Shown here in pieces: positions 6,226-51,302 of a stretch of DNA of 64,000 nucleotides. Made by a program: the position numbers and the translations under genes. Source of the stretch: an uncultured Chromatiaceae bacterium (lineage in GTDB: Bacteria; Pseudomonadota; Gammaproteobacteria; SZUA-140). The notes below the pieces were generated by a model. The model saw only the letters and a program-made list of their open reading frames with translations. It did not search any database and was not told the origin of the DNA. The stretch lies in contig CAZSAK010000004.1 in the NCBI GenBank assembly GCA_964605155.1, forward strand, positions 8,538 through 72,537, given 5' to 3'. The first letter of the stretch is position 1. Each line of letters starts with the position of its first letter.

Positions 6226-6744
6226 ATGAAAACATTTCACTACATGTTGTTGATTCTGGTGTTTGCCTCAGGTTTGTTATTCGGTGTGCAAGCCCCGGGT
6301 TTCGTCGATCAGTACGAAAAGAGGGTTAATGCACATTACCTGGAGGTCAATGAAAACTTCAAAGGCTTTCAGGATATTGCCAACCGCTTTCATGGTGGCA
6401 ACATCGAGTCACTGATCAAAAAACACGAGGGTAGTGGTGACTCGACGTTCAATGCCGAAGCGGAACCGTTGAGAAGAATATTTGAGAGAAAGATCCGTTT
6501 TGAAAGGGAGTTGCAGGCCATGCAGACATCACTTGTCGGCAAGGTCAAACATATCGCCATAGCCGGTGACAGGGAAACTGTTCAAGAGACCTGGAACAAT
6601 TATTCGGTCAATTTTCCCCTTAATACACCCGCTATTCTGTTCGGACTAACGGTTGCCTTGATTTCCACTATTGCATTCCAAATGCTTATTGTGCTTTTCA
6701 GAAAGCTCTTAACACTGGGCCGGCAGGTAAAGCAACCTGCCTGA
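6226..6744 (+). CDS. DUF2937-like membrane-anchored protein
   Basis: 172 aa. N-terminal TM or signal segment, QYEKRVNAHYLEVNENFKGFQDIANRFHGG core, and a C-terminal TM segment. Assignment is tentative. Confidence 0.5.
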   Translation: MKTFHYMLLILVFASGLLFGVQAPGFVDQYEKRVNAHYLEVNENFKGFQDIANRFHGGNIESLIKKHEGSGDSTFNAEAEPLRRIFERKIRFERELQAMQTSLVGKVKHIAIAGDRETVQETWNNYSVNFPLNTPAILFGLTVALISTIAFQMLIVLFRKLLTLGRQVKQPA

Positions 6745-8597: not shown

Positions 8598-8784
8598 ATA
8601 TCGTTAGTATTTATGGGAGGTACTAACTCAATCAGATCCAGACGGGCACGCAGATCCGTTCACCCTGGGTACGACAACCCACAGGAGACATGACATCAGA
8701 TTTGCTCGTTTGCCCGTTGCGATCTTCATGACTATGATGATGTCCCGTGTTGAGGTGAATGTCAAGGCACTCCATAATTCTAAT

Positions 8785-9780
8785 ATGCAGATATCAGTGG
8801 AAAACAGCGCGTTCCAAAGCCTTGGCCCCGACGATATTCTGGATGCCGTTGAAAGTGTCGGTTATCAATGCGACGGACGTTTTCTAGCACTGAACAGTTA
8901 TGAAAACCGTGTTTATCAGATCGGTATTGAAGATGACAGGCCTGTGGTCGCGAAGTTTTACCGGCCGAATCGCTGGGCGGATGCGGCGATCCTCGAGGAA
9001 CACATCTTTACACTGGAACTGGCTGCGGAGGAGATACCCGTTATTGCACCGATCGCCGATGATAAAGGTGAGACTCTGCATCATCATGGGCCGTTTCGTT
9101 TCGCGTTATATCCATTACGCGGAGGCAGGGCGCCGGAACTCGATAGCCCCGATCATCTGGAACAGCTTGGCCGGTTTATCGGCCGCATTCATGCCATCGG
9201 CAGGACACGTGACTATAAATACCGACCTACGCTGGATATCCGGCATTTCGGGATCGAATCATATCAGTTTCTGCTGGATCAAGGATTTATTCCGGCGGAG
9301 TTGATAGCAGCATACAGGAGCCTTGCAGAAGAGTTGGTTGAGCGTATCAAGGTATGCTTCAGCCGCGCTGAAAAAATCGGAATCATTCGTCTACATGGAG
9401 ATTGTCATCCGGGTAATATACTGTGGCGGGATGAGGGCCCCTTGATCGTGGATTTCGATGATGCACGCATGGGGCCGGCTGTTCAGGATCTTTGGATGTT
9501 CCTGTCCGGTGATCGTGACTACATGACCAGACGTCTGACCGATCTGCTGGATGGATACACGGAGTTTTGCGACTTTGATGCACGTGAACTGCATCTGGTC
9601 GAGGCGTTACGCACCCTGCGTATGATGCACTATGCTGCCTGGATTGCGCGACGCTGGGATGATTCGGCCTTCCCGGCGGCCTTTCCCTGGTTTAACACCG
9701 CCCGCTATTGGGATGACCATATCCTGTCGCTACGCGAACAGGCCGCGCTAATGGATGAACCGCCATTGGTGTGGGATTAA
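8785..9780 (+). CDS. srkA: Stress response kinase A (YihE/SrkA, Ser/Thr kinase)
   Basis: From MQISVENSAFQSLGPDDILDAVE...LNSYENRVYQIGIEDDRPVVAKFYRPNRW...HGDCHPGNILW..VDFDDARMGPAVQDLWM. Aligns end to end with E. coli SrkA. The ORF opens at 8710, but homology supports the ATG at 8785. Confidence 0.85.
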   Translation: MQISVENSAFQSLGPDDILDAVESVGYQCDGRFLALNSYENRVYQIGIEDDRPVVAKFYRPNRWADAAILEEHIFTLELAAEEIPVIAPIADDKGETLHHHGPFRFALYPLRGGRAPELDSPDHLEQLGRFIGRIHAIGRTRDYKYRPTLDIRHFGIESYQFLLDQGFIPAELIAAYRSLAEELVERIKVCFSRAEKIGIIRLHGDCHPGNILWRDEGPLIVDFDDARMGPAVQDLWMFLSGDRDYMTRRLTDLLDGYTEFCDFDARELHLVEALRTLRMMHYAAWIARRWDDSAFPAAFPWFNTARYWDDHILSLREQAALMDEPPLVWD

Positions 9781-10093
9781 CAGGAGTTTATCGTCACCAC
9801 GAGATGGAGGACTTGTACAGCATCTACCGGGGTGGCGTGAGTGTATCCCATAAAATACTCGGAGACATCGGTTTTATGTCCGAAGGCAATCTTTCCGCCG
9901 CGTGCGGAATAACCATTTGATAACCGTCCGAGTAGCAACAGCTTTCGGCCTGCATAGTGCGCCAGGAACGAGCCCTGTATCCATTCGCTGCATCGATCTG
10001 GACATTTCCGCTGTAACGAAATTGTCATACATAAGCCGTTATAATCTCGTAAATGGTTGTATATTTAGGACTATATGCAAACCACAAGGCAAC

Positions 10094-10109
10094 TGGCATG
10101 ATGCTTGCC
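10094..10109 (+). promoter_or_regulatory. Candidate sigma-54 (-24/-12) promoter TGGCAT-N5-TTGCC, also a TGGCA-N7-TGCCA dyad
   Basis: CTGGCATGATGCTTGCCA matches the TGGCACG-N4-TTGCW consensus, with GG and GC in the correct 12-nt register. It sits about 45 bp upstream of the 10155 start codon. rpoN is encoded in the same window. Confidence 0.4.
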
Positions 10110-10154
10110 ATTTAAGGTAATATTTACATAAGTAGAGGGTTTGCATGTAATAGT

Positions 10155-10649
10155 ATGGCAAGGCGCGTTACAGTGATAACTGATACGCAGGAGCGCATGT
10201 TGATCACGGAGAGTGTTTTACTTAAGGCAGATTGCGAAATATCCGCCAGGCTGTCGCATGATGACGACTGGTCGGGCAATATTTGTGATTCTGATCTGAT
10301 TATTATTGCCGTTGAAAGATGTAGCCAGGATCTGTTGAGTAATATTCACCGAATCTATAACAACCATCCAAAACCTGTCGTGCTGTTTGTTGACAAGGAT
10401 GATGAAAAATCGGTGATTGCCGCCATCAATGCTGGCGTGAATGCCTATGTGGTGGATGCTTTTGTCGGTAATCGGACTGCACGTGTCGGGGCGATTGTTA
10501 GTGCTGCCATATCCCGTTTCAATGCTATGCACGCATTGCAACGCGAACTTGATGAAACCAGGGCACGTCTGCGGGAATATGAATCCACTGAATCTGCCGA
10601 GGTCCTCGAAGTCATACAACCCGGGTATATTAAAGACAGCATTCACTAG
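10155..10649 (+). CDS. Atypical receiver (REC-like) domain protein with C-terminal coiled coil; lacks consensus phospho-acceptor residues
   Basis: 164 aa. REC-like layout (VTVITDTQ..DLIIIAVE..PVVLFVDKDD..AYVVDAF), but DD->TD, T->V and K->D at the conserved positions. The C-terminal 50 aa are a predicted helix (LQRELDETRARLREYE). No HTH or ANTAR domain recognised. Confidence 0.5.
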   Translation: MARRVTVITDTQERMLITESVLLKADCEISARLSHDDDWSGNICDSDLIIIAVERCSQDLLSNIHRIYNNHPKPVVLFVDKDDEKSVIAAINAGVNAYVVDAFVGNRTARVGAIVSAAISRFNAMHALQRELDETRARLREYESTESAEVLEVIQPGYIKDSIH

Positions 10650-19566: not shown

Positions 19567-21816
19567 TTGAATATCCCAGATCAGGCATATAACACACCTT
19601 ACCTTCCTACCGATTTAATACAACCGGCGTTCTCTATCAATGACCTGTGCGAGATGCTCGCAAGCTATCTCGAACCGCAGCAGATTGCCGAGATAGAGCG
19701 TGCCTACTCCTTCGGAGCCGAGGCGCATGAGGGGCAGCACCGTCTTTCCGGCGAATCCTATATCAACCATCCACTGGCAGTGGCAAGAATACTTGCCGAA
19801 ATGCATATGGATACAGAGAGTATCATTGCCGCTTTGTTACACGATGTTATCGAAGACACGCCGACTGCGAAGGAACAGATAGTGGAGCATTTCGGCACCG
19901 AAGTTGCCGAACTGGTCGACGGTGTGAGCAAACTGGCCCAGATCAAGTTCGAGAACCGGATCGAAGCGCAGGCGAAAAATTTTCGCAAGATGTTGCTGGC
20001 GATGGTTCAGGATATCCGGGTGATGATTATCAAACTCGCCGACCGCTTGCATAACATGCGCACCCTGAGCGTCATGCCGCCATACAAGCGCAGAAGAATC
20101 TCACGGGAGACACTGGAGATATACGCACCGATTGCCAATCGACTCGGCATGAATATGGTCCGTACCGAACTGCAGGAACTCGGATTTGCCGAATCATACC
20201 CGATGCGCTATCGAATCCTGAGTGAGGCCGTAAAAAAGGTGCGGGGAAATCGCAAGGAAGTCGTCAATAACATCAGGATCGCAATTGAACAACGTTTACA
20301 ACAGGAAGGACTCAACGGCAAGGTTCATGGCAGGGAAAAACATCTTTACAGCATTTATCAAAAGATGCGCAGCAAGAAACTGTCGTTTTCCGAAGTATTT
20401 GATGTTTATGCATTCCGGATAATCGTCGATTCGGTTGATACCTGTTACCGGGTGCTCGGTGCCATACATAACCTTTACAAGCCGGTGCCGGGTAAATTCA
20501 AGGATTATATCGCCATTCCGAAAACCAATGGTTATCAGTCGCTACACACAGTTTTGTTTGGCCCTTACGGAGTACCTATCGAAGTACAGGTACGTACCGG
20601 GGACATGGATAAGGTTGGTGAAGCTGGCGTTGCGGCCCACTGGCTGTATAAGCTGGGTGACAGCAGCGAGAGTTCGAAAAGCAGCGCCCAGGTTCGTGTG
20701 CGTGAATGGATGCGCGGACTGCTCGAGATGCAAAAGAATTCCGGCGATTCGCTGGAGTTTCTCGAAAACGTCAAGATCGACCTGTTTCCCGAAGCGGTCT
20801 ACGTATTCACCCCGAAGGGCAGGATCCTGGAGCTGCCGCGTAATGCTACTGCAGTTGATTTCGCCTATGCCGTCCATACCGACGTGGGAAACTCCTGTGT
20901 AGCAGCCAAGATCGACCGCCGCCTGGCACCGCTCAGTACACCGCTATTGAGCGGTCAATCCATTGAAATTATCACCTCTACAAACGCACGTCCGAATCCC
21001 GCATGGCTGAATTTTGTCGTTACGGGCAAGGCACGCACCACCATCCGTCACTATCTGAAGAATCTCCGCCAGGAGGAATCGTTGACCCTTGGCAAGCGTA
21101 TGCTGGAGCAGGCATTGAACGTATACTCGCTTGCCGTCAGTGATTTGCCTTATGAGGTCATCAATAATCTTCTGAAAGAGTATCACTGTCTTTCGTTGGA
21201 TCAATTGTATGAAGAGATCGGGCTTGGCAATCGTCTCGCTCCACTGGTTGCCAAGCGCCTGGCCGAATCCCCGTCGGGCAGGGATCGGAAGGCTAGACGC
21301 AAGTCTCATGCCATCACCAGTGTCCTGACGCGCTATATGCCTACCTGGCTGGGTGGAGACAGATCCACTCCACGTCCCCTGGCTATTAAAGGGACCGAGG
21401 GGATGGTGGTGACTTATGCCAAATGTTGTCACCCGATTCCGGGTGACCCTATTCAGGGATTTATTTCCACCGGCCGCGGGATCGTTATTCATACCGAATC
21501 ATGTAAAAATGTTGCGGATTTCCGCAACCGACCGGAAAAATGGATCGAAGTCGAATGGGAACCGGACGTCAAAGGTGAGTACTATGTCGAGATCCGCGTT
21601 GATGTGGTTAACCGCCGGGGTGTCCTGGCTACAATCGCCGCCACCATCTCATTGATGGATTCCAACATCAACAATGTGAATATCGAGGCGCGCGACGGGA
21701 AATACAGTTCAATCAATTTTGTTATCGGGGTACATGACCGTGTGCATCTCGCCAAAGTCATGCGCCGCATACGATCGCTGGATATGGTGTCACGCATTAT
21801 ACGCGTCAAGGGATGA
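19567..21816 (+). CDS. spoT: Bifunctional (p)ppGpp synthetase/hydrolase SpoT
   Basis: HD domain (HRLSGESYINHPLAVARILAEMHMD...LHDVIEDT), synthetase domain, TGS and ACT domains. Colinear with E. coli SpoT. The ATG start leaves about 15 extra N-terminal residues relative to E. coli, so the true start may be slightly downstream. Confidence 0.9.
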   Translation: MNIPDQAYNTPYLPTDLIQPAFSINDLCEMLASYLEPQQIAEIERAYSFGAEAHEGQHRLSGESYINHPLAVARILAEMHMDTESIIAALLHDVIEDTPTAKEQIVEHFGTEVAELVDGVSKLAQIKFENRIEAQAKNFRKMLLAMVQDIRVMIIKLADRLHNMRTLSVMPPYKRRRISRETLEIYAPIANRLGMNMVRTELQELGFAESYPMRYRILSEAVKKVRGNRKEVVNNIRIAIEQRLQQEGLNGKVHGREKHLYSIYQKMRSKKLSFSEVFDVYAFRIIVDSVDTCYRVLGAIHNLYKPVPGKFKDYIAIPKTNGYQSLHTVLFGPYGVPIEVQVRTGDMDKVGEAGVAAHWLYKLGDSSESSKSSAQVRVREWMRGLLEMQKNSGDSLEFLENVKIDLFPEAVYVFTPKGRILELPRNATAVDFAYAVHTDVGNSCVAAKIDRRLAPLSTPLLSGQSIEIITSTNARPNPAWLNFVVTGKARTTIRHYLKNLRQEESLTLGKRMLEQALNVYSLAVSDLPYEVINNLLKEYHCLSLDQLYEEIGLGNRLAPLVAKRLAESPSGRDRKARRKSHAITSVLTRYMPTWLGGDRSTPRPLAIKGTEGMVVTYAKCCHPIPGDPIQGFISTGRGIVIHTESCKNVADFRNRPEKWIEVEWEPDVKGEYYVEIRVDVVNRRGVLATIAATISLMDSNINNVNIEARDGKYSSINFVIGVHDRVHLAKVMRRIRSLDMVSRIIRVKG

Positions 21817-30961: not shown

Positions 30962-32503
30962 ATGAAACAGACAATTCAACTTCGCCTGGGTCAGAATCTG
31001 ACCATGACACCGCAACTGCAACAGGCGATTCGCCTGTTGCAACTGTCCACCCTCGATTTACAGGCGGAAATACAACAGGCGCTGGATTCAAACCCGATGC
31101 TGGAACAGGCCGAGGAGGATCATAATGACGGTATCGCGGCGGAAGGGGACTGGGATTCCGAAGGGCAACATACGCAAAAGGATGCACTCAATGATACCAA
31201 AGGGGATGCGTCATCATTAAACAACGAAATAACCCAGCAGGATTTACATAATACTAATCAGGATGAGATTCGCCTGCCGGATTCCGAGCTACAGGCGGAC
31301 ATACCTGATGAATTACCCGTCGATAGTGCCTGGGAGGATAGCTATGATATACCCGTCACCACGACCTCGGGAGTTCAGCCGGAATTCAGGGGAAATGAAG
31401 GACAGGATAATTCATCGGAAACCTTGCGTGAACATCTACTGTGGCAAATGCGTTTATCCAAATTCTCCGAAAAGGATACCGAGATTGCCACGACAATCAT
31501 CGACGCGATAAACGAGCATGGATATCTGACAGCCGCTTTTGATGAGCTCATCGAGAGTATCAGCGATGATTATGAGGTGGATCCGGATGAGGTCGAGGCC
31601 GTTCTTCATCGTATACAAAACTTTGATCCGGTAGGGGTCGGAGCACGCGATCTGCGTGAATGCCTGCTGATTCAATTGCAGCAACTAGAGAGCGAGACGC
31701 CGTGTCTGGAAGGTGCCAGGAAGCTGGTTGCAGATCATCTGCAATTGCTGGCGAACCGCGATTATACCCAGCTGATGCGGCGCATGAAAATCTCTCAGGA
31801 TGATTTGCGCCAGATGATAAGTCTGGTGCAGTCACTGAATCCGAGGCCTGGGAGCCTTATTTCCAGCAAGACGGCCGAATATATCGTGCCCGATGTCATC
31901 GTCAAAAAGGAAAAGGATGCCTGGAAAGTCGAACTCAATTCCGAGGCGATACCAAGAATCCGGATAAATCTGCAATATGCATCTCTCGTAAAACGTGCCG
32001 ATAACAGTAGTGACAACACCTATCTAAGGAACCATCTGCAAGAGGCTCGCTGGTTTATCAAGAGCCTTAAAAGCCGCAATGAAACCCTGCTCAAGGTTGC
32101 ATCATGTATCGTTGAGCGCCAGCGCGATTTTCTCGAGTATGGTGAGGAAGCGATGAAAGCTCTGGTGTTACATGATGTAGCAGAGGTGGTGGATATGCAT
32201 GAATCGACCATCTCGCGCGTTACCACACAGAAATACATGCACACGCCGCGTGGTATATTCGAGCTTAAATATTTCTTTTCCAGCCATGTCAGTACCGAGG
32301 ACGGGGGAGAGTGCTCGGCAACAGCAATAAGGGCACTATTGAAAAAGCTGATCGCTGCGGAAGATCCGTGTAAACCTCTCAGTGACAGTAAACTTGCGCA
32401 GATATTATCAGAACAGGGTATAAAAGTTGCACGCAGAACAATAGCAAAATATCGGGAATCAATCACAATCCCTTCATCAAACGAACGTAAAAGACTGGCA
32501 TAG
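30962..32503 (+). CDS. rpoN: RNA polymerase sigma-54 factor
   Basis: Region [34 protein letters not shown], an acidic region II, the RpoN box ARRTIAKYR, and an HTH. Confidence 0.95.
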
Positions 32504-32533
32504 TACAATACTTAATGATGAGGTTCTGAATAT

Positions 32534-32845
32534 ATGCAGATAAACCTGGGAGGTCATCATGTCGATATCACACCTTCGTTGCGTGATTATGTAACCACCA
32601 AGTTTGAAAAGCTGGAACGGCATTTTGATAATGTCAGTAGTGTCCATGTTGTCCTAAGTGTTGAAAAGATGGCACATAAGGCAGAAGCAACCATTCATGT
32701 CAGTGGCGGCAATCTGTTTGCCGATGCAAAGGCAGAGAACATGTATGCCGCAATTGATGCCTTGATCGACAAGCTTGACAGACAGATTATCAAGCATAAG
32801 GAAAAACAGACAAATTATCATCGTAACAGCGGGAGATTAAAATAA
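32534..32845 (+). CDS. hpf: Ribosome hibernation promoting factor (sigma-54 modulation protein)
   Basis: 103 aa; MQINLGGHHVDITPSLRDYV... is typical of Hpf/YhbH. Confidence 0.9.
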   Translation: MQINLGGHHVDITPSLRDYVTTKFEKLERHFDNVSSVHVVLSVEKMAHKAEATIHVSGGNLFADAKAENMYAAIDALIDKLDRQIIKHKEKQTNYHRNSGRLK

Positions 32846-32849
32846 GAAT

Positions 32850-33344
32850 ATGATAAGACTGTCAGAACTGCTCGGAAAAGATCATATATTGCTGGCCAAC
32901 GATGTTAGCAGCAAAAAGCGCGTGCTCGAATTATTAAGTGAAAATGTCGCCGGGAAGATACCCGAATTAACAGCAGCCGAAATTTTCGACAGTCTGGTAA
33001 ATCGCGAAAGGCTGGGCAGTACCGGTCTGGGGCACGGTGTTGCCATCCCGCATGCACGCCTGAAAAGCGTCTCTGGCCCTATTGCGGCCTTCCTGAAACT
33101 GCAGGAAGGCATTGATTACGATGCCATAGATGGTGAACCGGTCGATTTATTCTGTGCACTGGTGGTGCCGCACCAATCAACGGATGAGCATTTAAAGATC
33201 CTGGCGTTGCTGGCTGAAATGTTCAGCGATAATGATTTATGTGCCCGGTTACGGGCGGCTGAATCGAGTTCCGACATCCATACACTTCTGATAAATTGGC
33301 AGCCTGCTGAAATGCCACCGGCTGTGAAGCGCGCACACAGTTAA
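32850..33344 (+). CDS. ptsN: Nitrogen-regulatory PTS protein EIIA-Ntr
   Basis: PTS EIIA type-2 fold with the active-site His in GHGVAIPHAR. Confidence 0.85.
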   Translation: MIRLSELLGKDHILLANDVSSKKRVLELLSENVAGKIPELTAAEIFDSLVNRERLGSTGLGHGVAIPHARLKSVSGPIAAFLKLQEGIDYDAIDGEPVDLFCALVVPHQSTDEHLKILALLAEMFSDNDLCARLRAAESSSDIHTLLINWQPAEMPPAVKRAHS

Positions 33345-33346
33345 AC

Positions 33347-34306
33347 ATGCCATCCGTCCCGTTATCTACAGGGGCTTTTATCACAGCTTACCAGCACAGA
33401 CTCGATCTGAAATGGTTGGCCGGACGGGCAGGTGAAAACCGCCCCATACGGATACATGGTTCTCAGGACGACAAGCACGTTTTTTCCGATGCTCTGGTCG
33501 GGCATCTGAATCTGGTACATCCGAGCAAAATCCAGGTTATCGGTCTTATGGAACTCAACTATTTAAATGGTCTGAGGAAAAATTCCTACCATGACGCCGT
33601 TAAACAGTTGTTCGAGAATGAACCGGCGTTCATTGTAATCGCCGATGGCATGCAAATGCCGGATGATATCAGGCAGGCTGCAGAAGACAGTGATACACCA
33701 TTATTGTCCTCTTCATTCCCGGGGCATAAATTAATCACCCATATGCAATATTATTTGTCGAACATGCTTGCCGAGCGGCAGATTGTACATGGTGTGTTCA
33801 TGGAGGTGCTGGGTATCGGTGTTCTGATAACAGGTGAGAGTGGCGTTGGTAAAAGCGAGCTCGCCCTGGATTTGATTACACGCGGGCACCGCCTCATTGC
33901 CGATGATGCGCCCGAGTTTTCCCGTATTGCACCGGATACGCTGAATGGCGTTTGTCCCGCGGCGTTAACTGGTTTTCTTGAAGTACGTGGTCTCGGTATC
34001 TTGAATATCCGCTCCATGTTCGGTGACAGTGCGATTAAACAAAATCGGAATCTGCGACTGATAGTGCATCTGCAGCATATACATGATACCGAAGTACGAG
34101 AGATTGACCGATTCCATGGTGGCAAACAGAGTATTGTTATACTGGAGGTCGAGATTCCACGCATTATATTGCCTGTTGCCCCCGGAAGAAACCTTGCCGT
34201 TCTGCTGGAAGGCGCAGTGCGAAATCACATCCTGCAACTAAAAGGATATAATGCGGCACAGGATTTTGCCGCTCTCCAGCAGCGCCTGATGTCGGAAGAA
34301 GATTGA
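33347..34306 (+). CDS. hprK: HPr kinase/phosphorylase
   Basis: Walker A GESGVGKSE, and the LIADD and LEVRG motifs of the HprK C-terminal domain. Confidence 0.85.
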   Translation: MPSVPLSTGAFITAYQHRLDLKWLAGRAGENRPIRIHGSQDDKHVFSDALVGHLNLVHPSKIQVIGLMELNYLNGLRKNSYHDAVKQLFENEPAFIVIADGMQMPDDIRQAAEDSDTPLLSSSFPGHKLITHMQYYLSNMLAERQIVHGVFMEVLGIGVLITGESGVGKSELALDLITRGHRLIADDAPEFSRIAPDTLNGVCPAALTGFLEVRGLGILNIRSMFGDSAIKQNRNLRLIVHLQHIHDTEVREIDRFHGGKQSIVILEVEIPRIILPVAPGRNLAVLLEGAVRNHILQLKGYNAAQDFAALQQRLMSEED

Positions 34307-35166
34307 TGAAAATGCTTGTGATAAGCGGGTTGTCCGGTTCCGGAAAGAGTATCGCATTACAGGCGCTTGAAGACATGGATTATTATTGCGTTGATAATCT
34401 TCCGCTCTCCCTGTTGATAAATTTTGCCGGCCAGATGATCAATACGGCGGGACAAAGAAGATCTGAAAATATTGCCGTCAGTATTGACGCTCGCAACGTA
34501 ACACATAATTTGCAATATTTTCATGAGATACTCGGTGAGTTGAAACAGATGAAGATTTCCTGCGAGGTGATTTTTATCGAGGCGAATGATTCCACCTTGC
34601 TTTCCCGTTTCAGTGAGACCCGCCGGAAACATCCGCTAACAAACCCCGATATGCCCTTGATAGAAGCCATTGCCGCAGAAAGAAAGTTACTGAATGTAAT
34701 TTCCAGTAACGCCGATTTGCACATCGATACGAGCAAGACAAATGTGCATGAATTACGCGATATTATCCGTGAGCGGGTTGCTAGAAAGGGTATTCTGCCC
34801 TTGTCGATACAATTTGTATCCTTTGGCTATAAACGCGGGATACCTGCTGATGTGGATTTTGTGTTTGATGTGCGATGTCTGCCCAATCCGCACTGGGATC
34901 CGCGTTTGCAGGCATCAACCGGAAAGCATCCTGATGTTATAACTTTTCTTGAACAACAGCCGATAGTCCTCACCATGTATGAAGACATCAAATCCTTTCT
35001 GGAACGGTGGATACCGAAGTTCGAGACTGAAAATCGCAGTTATATGACGATCGCGGTTGGTTGTACCGGTGGACATCACCGATCCGTCTATCTTGTTGAG
35101 TCGCTGGCTTCCCATTTCAGGAAAACATATGATAATGTCCTGACAAGGCATCGGGAGTTGACCTGA
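34303..35166 (+). CDS. rapZ: RNase adapter protein RapZ (YhbJ)
   Basis: MMKMLVISGLSGSGKSIALQALEDMDYYCVDNLP; C-terminal CTGGHHRSV. Confidence 0.9.
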   Translation: MMKMLVISGLSGSGKSIALQALEDMDYYCVDNLPLSLLINFAGQMINTAGQRRSENIAVSIDARNVTHNLQYFHEILGELKQMKISCEVIFIEANDSTLLSRFSETRRKHPLTNPDMPLIEAIAAERKLLNVISSNADLHIDTSKTNVHELRDIIRERVARKGILPLSIQFVSFGYKRGIPADVDFVFDVRCLPNPHWDPRLQASTGKHPDVITFLEQQPIVLTMYEDIKSFLERWIPKFETENRSYMTIAVGCTGGHHRSVYLVESLASHFRKTYDNVLTRHRELT

Positions 35167-35585
35167 TGGTAGGGTTGATGGTTATTACCCATAATCAGAT
35201 AGGCGCGGCCTTGATAGAAACTGCAACCAGGATGCTGGACAGCTGTCCGATGCCGGTTGAGGTAATTTCAGTAACTGCAGCGGATAACCCTGAGGATATT
35301 CTGCAACAGTCCGGAGAGAAACTTGCACGGATCAACCAGGGCGATGGTGTCATTGTCTTAACCGATATGTATGGCTCAACACCGAGTAATATTGCAATCC
35401 AGATATGTGAGAATCATGATAAAAATAAAAAGCGCGGTAATGCAGTGGTAATCACGGGTGTCAACCTGCCGATGCTGGTGCGCTTGTTGAATTATCCCAA
35501 CCTGAACCTGCAACAATTGATTGACAAGGCCCTGAGCGGCGGACGGGACGGTATTCTGTTCTGTAGTAACCGCCATGATGGATAA
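35166..35585 (+). CDS. PTS EIIA component, mannose/fructose family (soluble, no permease partner nearby)
   Basis: 139 aa EIIA-Man fold (VLTDMYGSTPSN). Position between rapZ and the HPr gene. Confidence 0.75.
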   Translation: MVGLMVITHNQIGAALIETATRMLDSCPMPVEVISVTAADNPEDILQQSGEKLARINQGDGVIVLTDMYGSTPSNIAIQICENHDKNKKRGNAVVITGVNLPMLVRLLNYPNLNLQQLIDKALSGGRDGILFCSNRHDG

Positions 35586-35588
35586 CAA

Positions 35589-35858
35589 GTGAAATCGAGG
35601 GAAGCGCTGATCGTCAATAAACTGGGGCTGCATGCACGTGCGGCGGCTAAATTCGTAACCCTGGCGTCGGAGTTTGCAAGTGACATATATGTAGCCCGTG
35701 GCAATAAAAAGGTCAATGGAAAAAGTATCATGGGCGTCATGATGCTGGCAGCGGGCAAGAACACTCTCATAGAAATCAGTGCTGACGGCCCGGACGAACA
35801 AGCTGCTGTTGACCGGCTTGAAGAACTGGTTAATCAGCGTTTTGGAGAGGAAGTATAA
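35589..35858 (+). CDS. HPr-family phosphocarrier protein (NPr/PtsO-like)
   Basis: 89 aa; active-site region GLHARAAAKFV. Confidence 0.8.
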   Translation: MKSREALIVNKLGLHARAAAKFVTLASEFASDIYVARGNKKVNGKSIMGVMMLAAGKNTLIEISADGPDEQAAVDRLEELVNQRFGEEV

Positions 35859-35962
35859 ATTCAGCACACTGCCTGATATAAATTTTTTATTGATTCAGCA
35901 ACGTTAGCAAAGGACGCATGCCGATGTTACCAGTCTGCCGTTATTCCAGGTGTTGAAGCATT

Positions 35963-37705
35963 ATGGGTTTGGTGCTGAGCGGCATAAGTATTTCACGGGG
36001 GATTGCCATCGGTCAGGCATATCTTCTGGAACACGATGATCTTGAGATCAGTGAATACAGCATCCCGCAGCACCTCATCAAGCATGAAATTACCCGCTTT
36101 AAAACTGCTGTGGAAAAGGCAAGACAACAATTACACGATATTCGTAACCGGATACCGATCAACACCCCCACGGAGATTACCGCCTTTATCGATGCCCATT
36201 TGCTGATGCTTGAGGATGCCGCTCTTTCAGAGGCTCCCAAAAATATTATCAAAACCAGACAGTGTAATGCTGAATGGGCAATGAAACTGCAACGGGATGC
36301 CCTTGTCAGCGTTTTTGATGCCATGGATGACGCCTACCTGCGTACCCGCAAGGATGATGTTGATCATGTAGTTAAACGCATTCAATCCTATCTGATCAAT
36401 CAAGACGGCCAGTCTCACAATGCCCCGGAGGGGTGGCTGAAGAACAGCATAGTCGTCGCCGAGGATCTCTCACCTGCAGAAATGATGATGTTGCAACATC
36501 AGGGTGTAGCCGCATTTGTAACGGAATACGGCGGGCCGAATTCTCATACGGCAATACTTGCGCGCAGTCTGGGGATACCGGCCGTGGTTGGCATACATCA
36601 TATCCGCGGTTATCTTGTCCAGAATGAGATCCTGGTCCTCGACGGCCAGAGAGGTGTCGTGCTGGCGAACCCTGATCCACAGGAACTCGAGTATTTCCGC
36701 TCCCTGCAACGTACTGAAAGACTCCGGCATGCCGGACTCAAGAAACTGAAACAGCAACCCGCTGTTACCAGTGATGGCCAACAGGTCTCGTTGCTTGCCA
36801 ACGCTGAGTTACCCGAGGACATACCGGCAATCAAGCGCGCCGCCGCCGCCGGAATCGGACTGTATCGCACTGAAATGCTGTTTATGAGCCATGATTCATT
36901 ACCTGATGAGGAAGAACAATACCGGACTTATCTGAAAATAGTGCGCGCCATGAAGGGCGCACCGGTTACCATACGCACTATAGACATTGGTGCGGATAAA
37001 CAGGCCCAAGGCAGACGGCAATCCGGCTCAATGGCAACCAACCCGGCTTTGGGACTGCGCGCGATCAGATGGTGTCTGAAAGATCCCGCGCAGTTTATAC
37101 CGCAAATCCGCGCGATACTCAGGGTCTCGGCACATGGCCCGGTAAAGATGATGATCCCGATGTTGTCCACTATACAGGAATTGACCCAGGTATTGCGTAT
37201 TGTGGAACAGGAAAAAGCATCCATGCAAAAGCATGGTATTCGCTTCGATAAAAAGATTCCGATCGGAGGAATGGTGGAGATACCTGCCGCCGCTTTGGCG
37301 GCCAGTGCCTTTGCCCGGCATCTTGATTTTCTCTCTATAGGTACCAATGACCTGATTCAATACACTCTGGCGGTGGATCGTCTCGATGAAGAGGTCAATT
37401 ATCTTTATAATCCCCTCCATCCGGCAATCCTGCAATTGATCAATATGACGATGGTCGCGGGCAAAAAGGCCAATATTCCAGTTACGATGTGCGGTGAAAT
37501 GGCCGGTGATACGCTTTATACCCGATTGCTGCTGGGCATGGGATTGAGGGAGTTCAGCATGCTGTCTGGTTCACTGCTGGAGGTAAAGCGTATCATAATT
37601 AGCAGTGATGCCTCTGTCTTGTCTAGACGTGTTCGAAAGGTTATGAAGATGTCCAACCCGGTGGAGATATTGGAGTTCGTAGAGAAAATCAACGCCGCCG
37701 ATTGA
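35963..37705 (+). CDS. ptsI: Phosphoenolpyruvate-protein phosphotransferase (Enzyme I)
   Basis: 580 aa. N-terminal HPr-binding region, phospho-His region GGPNSHTAILARSLGIP, and a PEP-utilising TIM barrel. No GAF domain, so it is PtsI-like rather than PtsP. Confidence 0.85.
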   Translation: MGLVLSGISISRGIAIGQAYLLEHDDLEISEYSIPQHLIKHEITRFKTAVEKARQQLHDIRNRIPINTPTEITAFIDAHLLMLEDAALSEAPKNIIKTRQCNAEWAMKLQRDALVSVFDAMDDAYLRTRKDDVDHVVKRIQSYLINQDGQSHNAPEGWLKNSIVVAEDLSPAEMMMLQHQGVAAFVTEYGGPNSHTAILARSLGIPAVVGIHHIRGYLVQNEILVLDGQRGVVLANPDPQELEYFRSLQRTERLRHAGLKKLKQQPAVTSDGQQVSLLANAELPEDIPAIKRAAAAGIGLYRTEMLFMSHDSLPDEEEQYRTYLKIVRAMKGAPVTIRTIDIGADKQAQGRRQSGSMATNPALGLRAIRWCLKDPAQFIPQIRAILRVSAHGPVKMMIPMLSTIQELTQVLRIVEQEKASMQKHGIRFDKKIPIGGMVEIPAAALAASAFARHLDFLSIGTNDLIQYTLAVDRLDEEVNYLYNPLHPAILQLINMTMVAGKKANIPVTMCGEMAGDTLYTRLLLGMGLREFSMLSGSLLEVKRIIISSDASVLSRRVRKVMKMSNPVEILEFVEKINAAD

Positions 37706-49922: not shown

Positions 49923-51302
49923 TTAAAAATCATGGCGACCTCCACCCATGGCCGGGCGATGCATGGGTTTGTCTTCAAGCGGCAGGGGTTGGAGGATTGC
50001 CACCGTCAGATTGTCATCAATCAGATATTTGCGTGCAACCTTCTGTATCTGTTCGGGCGTTACGGCCTTGATCCGGTCGACGTATTCGTCGAGTAATTTC
50101 CAGCTAAGCCCGATGCTTTCCAGCATACCTATTTGCATGGCTTGGTAGAATACCGAGTCTCGCCCGTAGACGTCCGATGCGATGACCTGTGCCTTGATGC
50201 GGGCAAGTTCGTTGTCCGAAACAGGCTTTTCGCGCAGACGCCTGACCTGTGCCTTCAGTGCATCTTCAATCTCGCCGATCGAATGGCCACGAGCGGGCGT
50301 ACCATCAAGCGTCAGAAGGTCTTCAATACGGGACGTCATGTTATAGCCGGCGCTCACGCTGGCCGCGATCTGCTTGTCCCGGATCAGTTCCTTGGAAAAT
50401 CGTGCACTGTCGCCACCGTCGAGCACCGCCGCAAGCACCTCCAGTGCGTAGGGTTCCCATTCTTCATCAGCAGTGGTCAGAACCGGGGTTTTATAACCCA
50501 TGATAATAAACGGGAGTTCGGCGGGCGTTTTTACAACGATACGGCGTTCACCGACCTGGGGTATTTCAGTTCTGGGTTTGAGTGGCTGGAGCTTGCTTGG
50601 TTTGAGCGGGCCGAAATATTTCTTAGCCAGCTTGAGTACCACCTGGGGATCAACGTCACCCACCACGACCAGGGTTGCGTTGTTGGGGGCGTACCATCTG
50701 TCATACCATGCCTTGAGGTCATCGGCGGTCATGTTTTGCAGATCATTCATCCAGCCGATAACGGAATGATGATAGGGGCTGTTGACAAAGGCTGCGGCGG
50801 TGAATTGTTCATAGGTTAATGACTGGGGACTGTCATCGGTGCGCATGCGGCGCTCTTCCATGACCACCTGTATTTCTTTTGCAAAATCTTCCTTGCGTAG
50901 GAGCAGATTACGCATGCGGTCAGATTCAAGTTCAAAACTCACGTGCAGTCGGCTTTTTTCCAGTTGCTGGAAGTATGCAGTATAGTCACGTCCTGTAAAT
51001 GCATTTTCACGACCGCCGTTTTCGCTGATAATTCGCGAAAATTCACCTGCCGGATGCTTGGACGTTCCCTTGAACATCATATGCTCGAGCGCATGGGAGA
51101 TTCCGGTGATGCCGTCATGTTCATAGCTGCTACCCACCTTGTACCATACCTGTGAAACAACAACGGGAGCGCGGTGGTCTTCCTTGACAAGCACCTTGAG
51201 GCCGTTTTTCAGCATATATTCATGTACATCCTGTGATTCAGCGGCGACAAGGTTGGTCGCGGGCAACAGCAGTGCCAGGGTAAGAATGAGAGTCTTGAAC
51301 AT
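49923..51302 (-). CDS. M16 family zinc metallopeptidase (catalytic subunit, HxxEH)
   Basis: Signal peptide; inverted zinc-binding motif HALEHMMFKGT and a downstream E. Pitrilysin/PqqL-like. Confidence 0.8.
   Translation of the reverse strand: MFKTLILTLALLLPATNLVAAESQDVHEYMLKNGLKVLVKEDHRAPVVVSQVWYKVGSSYEHDGITGISHALEHMMFKGTSKHPAGEFSRIISENGGRENAFTGRDYTAYFQQLEKSRLHVSFELESDRMRNLLLRKEDFAKEIQVVMEERRMRTDDSPQSLTYEQFTAAAFVNSPYHHSVIGWMNDLQNMTADDLKAWYDRWYAPNNATLVVVGDVDPQVVLKLAKKYFGPLKPSKLQPLKPRTEIPQVGERRIVVKTPAELPFIIMGYKTPVLTTADEEWEPYALEVLAAVLDGGDSARFSKELIRDKQIAASVSAGYNMTSRIEDLLTLDGTPARGHSIGEIEDALKAQVRRLREKPVSDNELARIKAQVIASDVYGRDSVFYQAMQIGMLESIGLSWKLLDEYVDRIKAVTPEQIQKVARKYLIDDNLTVAILQPLPLEDKPMHRPAMGGGRHDF

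Follow-up and report, generated by a model that had tools for sequence, protein, structure and literature searches.

A predicted sigma-54 promoter, conserved among relatives, upstream of a degenerate NasT/AmiR-family pseudo-receiver gene

In E. coli, the glnAp2 promoter combines −24/−12 elements with NtrC sites near −140 and −108, and in many sigma-54 promoters DNA-bending proteins act between the enhancer and the promoter. Sixty-six sigma-54 promoters have been predicted for ANTAR/NasT genes (COG3707) in beta- and gamma-proteobacteria (PMC12316311), and the induction of nasT in Paracoccus requires an NtrC site (PMC5424462). The locus described here resembles the NtrC/sigma-54-controlled nasT genes of Proteobacteria in the regulator family of its product (NasT/AmiR, COG3707), in the placement of a predicted −24/−12 promoter 40–55 nt before a start codon, and in an upstream element of the TGC-N11-GC type. 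It differs in that its product has neither the acceptor Asp nor the greater part of the ANTAR domain, in that tag, thiS, thiG, and trmB lie 3′ of the gene instead of nasS, nitrate-uptake, or nitrate-reductase genes, and in that the enhancer-like block contains a good NtrC half-site only. The arrangement is of an already known kind, ANTAR regulators behind −24/−12 promoters, and the predicted promoter itself is ordinary; only the product, conserved yet domain-depleted, is mildly unusual.

The gene in question (10155..10649, + strand, 164 a.a.) lies in a window of 64 kb, a term used here for the whole stretch of DNA analyzed. Its upstream neighbor is an APH-family (SrkA-like) kinase gene (8710–9780), from which it is separated by a 374-bp non-coding gap (9781–10154). 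No nasS, NrtA, or second ANTAR gene was present within the window. Rfam matched nothing in the promoter region, the sole match in the window being a tRNA (2910–2980), and neither a terminator scan nor folding revealed a terminator after the 164-a.a. gene in the window. As a separate observation, one relative (L002) carries a strong GC-rich hairpin (AACGGCGCCUGCCGGGCGCCGUU, nt. 6350–6385, fold z-score −3.7) and a U-rich stretch directly after the equivalent gene, which suggests a monocistronic unit at that locus.

The 164-a.a. product is rare, with only about nine relatives among 5.8 billion proteins, and the one NCBI-derived entry for it carries no product name. It had no match in Pfam, with ANTAR (PF03861) absent even at E-values up to 1. 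The AF2 model (pLDDT 80) displays a receiver-like alpha/beta domain in which no helix separates strands 2 and 3, and then a helix of 45 residues (107–151), in the order E3-9, H12-24, E27-34, E48-53, H58-70, E75-80, H84-92, E96-100, and H107-151. The best PDB sequence match was the receiver-ANTAR protein Rv1626 (1s8n, E = 7e-5), while Foldseek returned CheY-type receivers and AmiR, the latter with a query TM-score of 0.67, the highest among the PDB matches listed. The remote homologs were all Response_reg plus ANTAR proteins of ~194 a.a., often named NasT. Against this family, the acceptor-Asp position is occupied by Ala52 (alignment A4; Asp in P0160 and P0236), the acidic pair D-E after beta-1 is replaced by D10-T11, and the protein ends ~30 residues before the ANTAR C-terminus, within the first third of the domain, with ERAKG changed to ESAEV. 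Both features of a phosphorylatable response regulator, the acceptor Asp and the acidic pair, are missing, in keeping with the atypical receiver named in the original prediction.

A comparable protein is AmiR of Pseudomonas aeruginosa (PDB 1qo0; pseudo-receiver, coiled coil, and ANTAR), in which a receiver-like fold that likewise has no phospho-acceptor precedes a long helix. AmiR, however, has a complete ANTAR three-helix bundle, whereas the window protein breaks off within its first third and no longer contains ERAKG. The protein shows the receiver fold and long helix of the NasT/AmiR family without the complete ANTAR, and given this incompleteness, we regard it as a derivative of the family and not a functional member. 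Judging from the alignment and the model, it is a NasT/AmiR-descended pseudo-receiver that has lost the phospho-acceptor as well as the greater part of the RNA-binding ANTAR domain. The ratio dN/dS is 0.1–0.24 in both halves of the gene, indicating a maintained gene as opposed to a wreck. The JGI and Logan gene callers and all homologs support a length of 164 a.a., while the NCBI annotation starts at Met15 (P0001, 150 a.a.); three homologs have Thr or Ala in place of Met15, and residues 1–14 are conserved. The NCBI start is probably 14 codons too short, or translation initiation is unusual. We did note that the Met15 ATG (nt. 10197) is preceded by AGGAG, and that the start at 10155 has no obvious Shine-Dalgarno sequence.

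Within the gap and pointing towards the 10155 gene lies the predicted core sigma-54 promoter, TGGCAT-GATGC-TTGCC (10094..10109, + strand), assigned from its sequence, its position weight matrix (PWM) score, and its conservation at nine loci. The window reads CTGGCATGATGCTTGCCA at 10093–10110, of which TGGCAT occupies 10094–10099, the spacer GATGC 10100–10104, and TTGC 10105–10108. As the original prediction had it, the GG of the −24 element (10095–96) and the GC of the −12 element (10107–08) are 12 nt apart (GG-N10-GC). From the C of GC (10108) to the ATG (10155) is 47 nt, and standard −24/−12 geometry, with initiation ~12 nt past that C, would place the transcription start at 10119..10121 on the + strand, leaving a leader of ~35 nt (start near 10120), the distance originally proposed. 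Against the consensus TGGCAC-N5-TTGCW, the site deviates twice, with T at −21 (after TGGCA) and C at −11 (after TTGC). The former is common, being found in 11 of 29 Salmonella sites, and the latter rare (1/29); a search for TGGC-N7-TTGCW found no match at the site because the base after TTGC is C and not A or T. The rare base has a precedent in the sigma-54 promoter of Salmonella STM0577, a ChIP-chip site (TGGCACGCCGTTTGCCAT; PMC3844500, Table 3), which shares the unusual −12 region TTGCCAT (C after GC) and therefore indicates that this base is tolerable for sigma-54 binding. STM0577 is nonetheless an unrelated gene in an unrelated organism, and its −24 element is TGGCAC compared to TGGCAT here.

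A PWM built from 29 intergenic Salmonella sigma-54 sites (PMC3844500, Table 3) assigned the site 16.5 bits, the top score of 128,000 positions, with the runner-up at 11.6 bits. This falls inside the range of leave-one-out scores of the 29 Salmonella sites themselves (14.0–22.9 bits, median 17.7). Scores of at least 16.5 bits were, however, reached in ~30% of Markov-1 random 64-kb sequences, so that the window sequence, taken by itself, is compatible with chance. The PWM scan proposed for this site thus gave the window's best score together with a sizeable random background, and the single-sequence case for a sigma-54 promoter is modest, at most suggestive. The looser pattern TGGCAY-N5-TTGC matched three times in the 64 kb, against 0.53 expected. 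The second match (21299–21313, − strand) is intragenic and antisense in relA/spoT, and the third (51263–51277, − strand) lies, in sense orientation, within an M16 peptidase gene close to its 5′ end; given their intragenic positions and low PWM scores (10.6 and 9.3 bits, respectively), both were set aside as chance matches and not considered as promoters. On a side note, the maximum PWM score of Markov-1 random sequences of the window's length averaged 15.5 bits (sd 2.0), and the real window without the 10094 site peaks at 11.6 bits, below that mean; sigma-54-like sites may be avoided in the window, or the simple null model may be at its limit.

The stronger evidence comes from comparison. We recovered the DNA encoding relatives of the 164-a.a. 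product (L001–L006 and L087–L091) and compared the site across nine distinct sequences including the window, representing at least four clades. The site reads CTGGCATGATGCTTGCCATT in the window, CTGGCATAGTACTTGCCATT in L001 and L003, TTGGCATGCTACTTGCCATT in L002, ATGGCATGGTACTTGCCATT in L004, CTGGCACAGTACTTGCCGTT in L006, CTGGCACAGTACTTGCCCTT in L088, CTGGCATAATGTTTGCTTTG in L005, and CTGGCACAGTCCTTGCTGAG in L087. TGGCAY-N5-TTGC is present in all nine sequences with fixed spacing. Alignment A3 shows no variation in TGGCA, in TTGC, or in the T at the third spacer position (window 10102), and the base following TGGCA is always C or T. Four of the five spacer positions vary (GATGC, AGTAC, GCTAC, GGTAC, AATGT, and AGTCC). 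The site is intergenic and correctly oriented throughout, with 41–56 nt between the C at −12 and the start codon in every locus. With the Salmonella-derived matrix, the relatives scored 11.1–21.6 bits, the L005 site reaching 21.6 bits and the L087 site 12.2 bits only; the changes seen in L005 and L087 give TTGCT, nearer to the sigma-54 consensus.

Beyond the motif, the intergenic region can barely be aligned between clades, as expected if unconstrained positions have been randomized. For the adjacent gene, dS is 0.44 within the window's clade, 1.4 between that clade and the clade of L002, L004, and L006, and >2 relative to L005. As synonymous sites are saturated between clades, the invariance of the motif reflects selection, and we rest the case for a functional motif mainly on this invariance across saturated divergence. 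The comparison supports the original proposal that the 10155 gene is preceded by a sigma-54 promoter, and we consider it very likely that 10094–10109 is the sigma-54 (−24/−12) promoter of the 164-a.a. gene. TTGCC would then be a tolerated −12 variant, an assignment which the conservation supports.

The same nine sequences bear on a further proposal in the original prediction, that the site is the target of a dimeric regulator. TGGCA-N7-TGCCA (10094–10110) is indeed a perfect 5+5 dyad that occurs once in the window, where 0.10 occurrences would be expected, and the dyad is kept in five of the nine sequences (the window, L001, L003, L002, and L004). It could accordingly be the operator of a dimeric helix-turn-helix regulator, with the sigma-54 likeness incidental. 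In the other four, though, the right half TGCCA is lost (TGCTT in L005, TGCCG in L006, TGCCC in L088, and TGCTG in L087) while the positions relevant to sigma-54 stay, TTGC being kept in all four loci with a broken dyad. T10099 and T10105 are, moreover, not mirror images, and the minus-strand reading of the site reaches no more than 8.7 bits. The operator reading is disfavored by this pattern of loss, and we regard it as very improbable.

A sigma-70-type promoter, or another conserved element, could also underlie the block, given that TTGCCA matches the −35 hexamer TTGACA at five of six positions and that a GTAGTAT-like string, which might supply TAGTAT or TAATAT as a −10 element, recurs 3′ of the site in several relatives. 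Yet a promoter scan of the + strand from 9600 to 10155 found no sigma-70 promoter, and by eye, no conserved −10 hexamer lies 16–18 nt past TTGCCA. The offset of TAGTAT from TTGC is 8, 10, or 12 nt depending on the clade, in contrast to the rigid TGGCA-to-TTGC spacing, and the putative −35 reads TTGCCG in L006 and TTGCTG in L087. We therefore find this explanation highly unlikely and retain the sigma-54 promoter as the preferred reading.

The sigma-54 factor itself is encoded in the window, 20 kb downstream as previously noted, by rpoN (30962..32503, + strand), which displayed the Pfam domains Sigma54_AID, Sigma54_CBD, and Sigma54_DBD (E = 1e-15 to 1e-69) and is followed by ptsN, hprK, rapZ, and ptsI. 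In passing, the HPr kinase/phosphorylase gene of this cluster (30962–37705) lies at 33347–34306, between ptsN and rapZ, and ptsI at 35963–37705. No gene for a GAFTGA-type activator was found within the 64-kb window, in agreement with the earlier remark that no enhancer-binding protein gene is visible nearby.

The upstream search for enhancer dyads had a mixed outcome. Inverted or direct repeats conserved as enhancer dyads were not found in the four upstream regions searched, and a scan for NifA sites (TGT-N10-ACA) returned nothing at conserved positions. A single YGCRCCA block was, on the other hand, present in all six full-length upstream regions, its center falling at −151 to −154 relative to the predicted start. 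In the window, this candidate activator site reads TGCGCCAGGAACGAGCC (9958..9974, + strand; centered ~−154) and resembles an NtrC site (TGC-N11-GC core). The corresponding blocks are TGCACCAGTGTCGAGCA in L003, TGCACCAATTTCGAGCT in L087, TGCACCATCATTGAGCG in L006, TGCACCATGGTTGAGCG in L088, and CGCACCAATTTAAACCA in L002. Compared by eye to TGCACCANNNTGGTGCA, the block matches at 12/14 positions in L003, 11/14 in L087, L006, and L088, and 9/14 in the window and L002. A scan with TGCACC-N5-GGTGCA gave 10/12 in L003 and 9/12 in L006, both centered at −152, with 8/12 in the window and 7/12 in L002 by eye. The left half of the block corresponds to the NtrC half-site TGCACCA, and the right half is consistently YGAGC, having only the G.GC core of GGTGCA; the window's own copy is likewise a good half-site only. 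We consider the block at 9958–9974 the best candidate enhancer, with a putative function as such. No second NtrC-like site was recognized in the upstream regions.

Between this block and the promoter lie conserved A/T-rich blocks (10050..10079, + strand; alignments A2 and A3), which comprise YAA-N4-TTGTAT at 10050–10062 (~−63), conserved in the relatives, and CTATATGCA at 10071–10079 (~−47), with CTAAATCA as its counterpart in the relatives. These may form an IHF-like DNA-bending site, a weak inference given that a strict IHF consensus scan had no match at the conserved block in any locus. In its layout, the upstream region is consistent with the classical arrangement of enhancer, bend, and −24/−12 promoter, with NtrC as the putative activator. 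The similarity to glnAp2 lies in an enhancer-like element at a fixed distance, ~130 nt 5′ of the −24 element, with an A/T-rich stretch between; in contrast to glnAp2, one NtrC-like block is recognizable here, and its second half-site is YGAGC as opposed to GGTGCA.

The likely origin of the promoter can be read from sister genes that retain a full ANTAR domain. One such gene, encoding P0157 (L087), lies directly 3′ of an srkA-like gene and is followed by an Alginate_exp porin gene and a gene for an NMT1_2 (NrtA-like) binding protein, the same set that occurs 3′ of nasT-nasS in L094. As an aside, the 358-bp gap in L087 between the full-length ANTAR gene and the porin gene (nt. 966–1323) is a candidate leader for ANTAR-type antitermination. 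A second sister, P0158 (L088, 190 a.a.), also has a full ANTAR domain; L088 (nt. 1–581) and L006 (nt. 329–908) share 89% DNA identity from the promoter through codon ~103, after which the similarity ends abruptly at the YVVDG codons, one gene continuing into a full ANTAR domain (190 a.a.) and the other into the shortened tail (164 a.a.). This looks like a mosaic allele that would have arisen by recombination or gene conversion within the gene. Both full-length sisters share the same sigma-54 promoter motif. Among canonical NasT homologs, two loci display the arrangement of NtrC/sigma-54-controlled nasT genes directly: L092 carries TGGCATATGTATTGCTAT (18.4 bits) 53 nt before the ATG, and L094 carries a perfect NtrC dyad, TGCACCGCCCTGGTGCA, together with CGGCAT-N5-TTGCT. 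On this comparison, the promoter is ancestral to the subfamily and appears to have been inherited from a NasT-type regulator gene. Since the full-length ANTAR sisters beside nitrate-type uptake genes share the promoter, nitrogen limitation acting via NtrC is the most likely signal, and the promoter is probably under NtrC-like nitrogen control.

An ANTAR-type gene beside an srkA-like kinase gene was found at none of 80 loci in species-representative genomes (≤71% identity), and a protein-alignment scan of such genomes returned no orthologs of the 164-a.a. protein. The best srkA matches were in gammaproteobacterial MAGs, at ≤71% identity.

An ancestral promoter might also outlive its use, and the site could be one that the sigma-54 holoenzyme no longer uses productively in the window's lineage, whether as a relic of an ancestral nasT promoter or as a pure chance match. 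The nitrate-type uptake genes linked in L087 are absent from the window locus, the window copy of the NtrC-like block is degenerate (9/14), and a random match of 16.5 bits is not rare, all of which such a reading would accommodate. The downstream gene is, however, under purifying selection (dN/dS 0.14–0.24), the sigma-70 scan of the + strand (9600–10155) offered no other promoter candidate for it, and the core motif is intact in 7/7 loci with a truncated gene. A pure chance match is, moreover, incompatible with conservation of the motif across saturated divergence. We judge a relic or chance site very unlikely.

For the preferred reading, an active sigma-54 promoter, the analysis shows the motif with its conservation and fixed spacing, an rpoN gene, and the nature of the protein; from these sequences we infer that the gene depends on sigma-54, where transcription starts, which activator acts, and whether IHF takes part. 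RNA polymerase with sigma-54 (30962–32503) would bind the GG at 10095–96 and the GC at 10107–08 as a closed complex, which would stay silent until an ATP-hydrolyzing enhancer-binding protein bound upstream makes contact by DNA looping. The NtrC-like block at ~−153 (9958–9974) would be the best candidate for the enhancer, and bending at the A/T-rich block from −47 to −63 may aid the looping. Transcription would start near 10120, and the signal would most likely be nitrogen limitation, acting through NtrC.

What the product may do is a more doubtful matter. We tentatively suggest, while thinking it rather improbable, that the protein is a decoy induced by nitrogen limitation, which titrates a NasS-like sensor or heterodimerizes with a full-length NasT-type antiterminator encoded elsewhere; the conserved receiver face or the long helix would then be the interaction surface. 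Were this true, the protein would be a protein-level modulator of antitermination, a role that to our knowledge has not been described for the NasT/AmiR family, and the L088/L006 mosaic pair would represent switching between active and decoy forms.

The predicted promoter gives a rare gene without a Pfam domain a regulatory assignment that is well supported, and adds one more conservation-backed example to the predicted class of ANTAR regulators behind −24/−12 promoters. It also suggests that sigma-54 control persisted while a NasT-type antiterminator decayed into a domain-poor pseudo-receiver.

In the gap upstream of the promoter, nt. 9803–9911 of the window contain what is left of a small TfoX_N-like gene, decayed and frameshifted (best match KILGDIGFMSEGNLSAACGI vs. 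KMFGGVGFMIEGNIACGV). In L006 and L091, this gene lies intact (109 a.a., PF04993) between srkA and the promoter, and in L002 it is internally shortened (74 a.a.).
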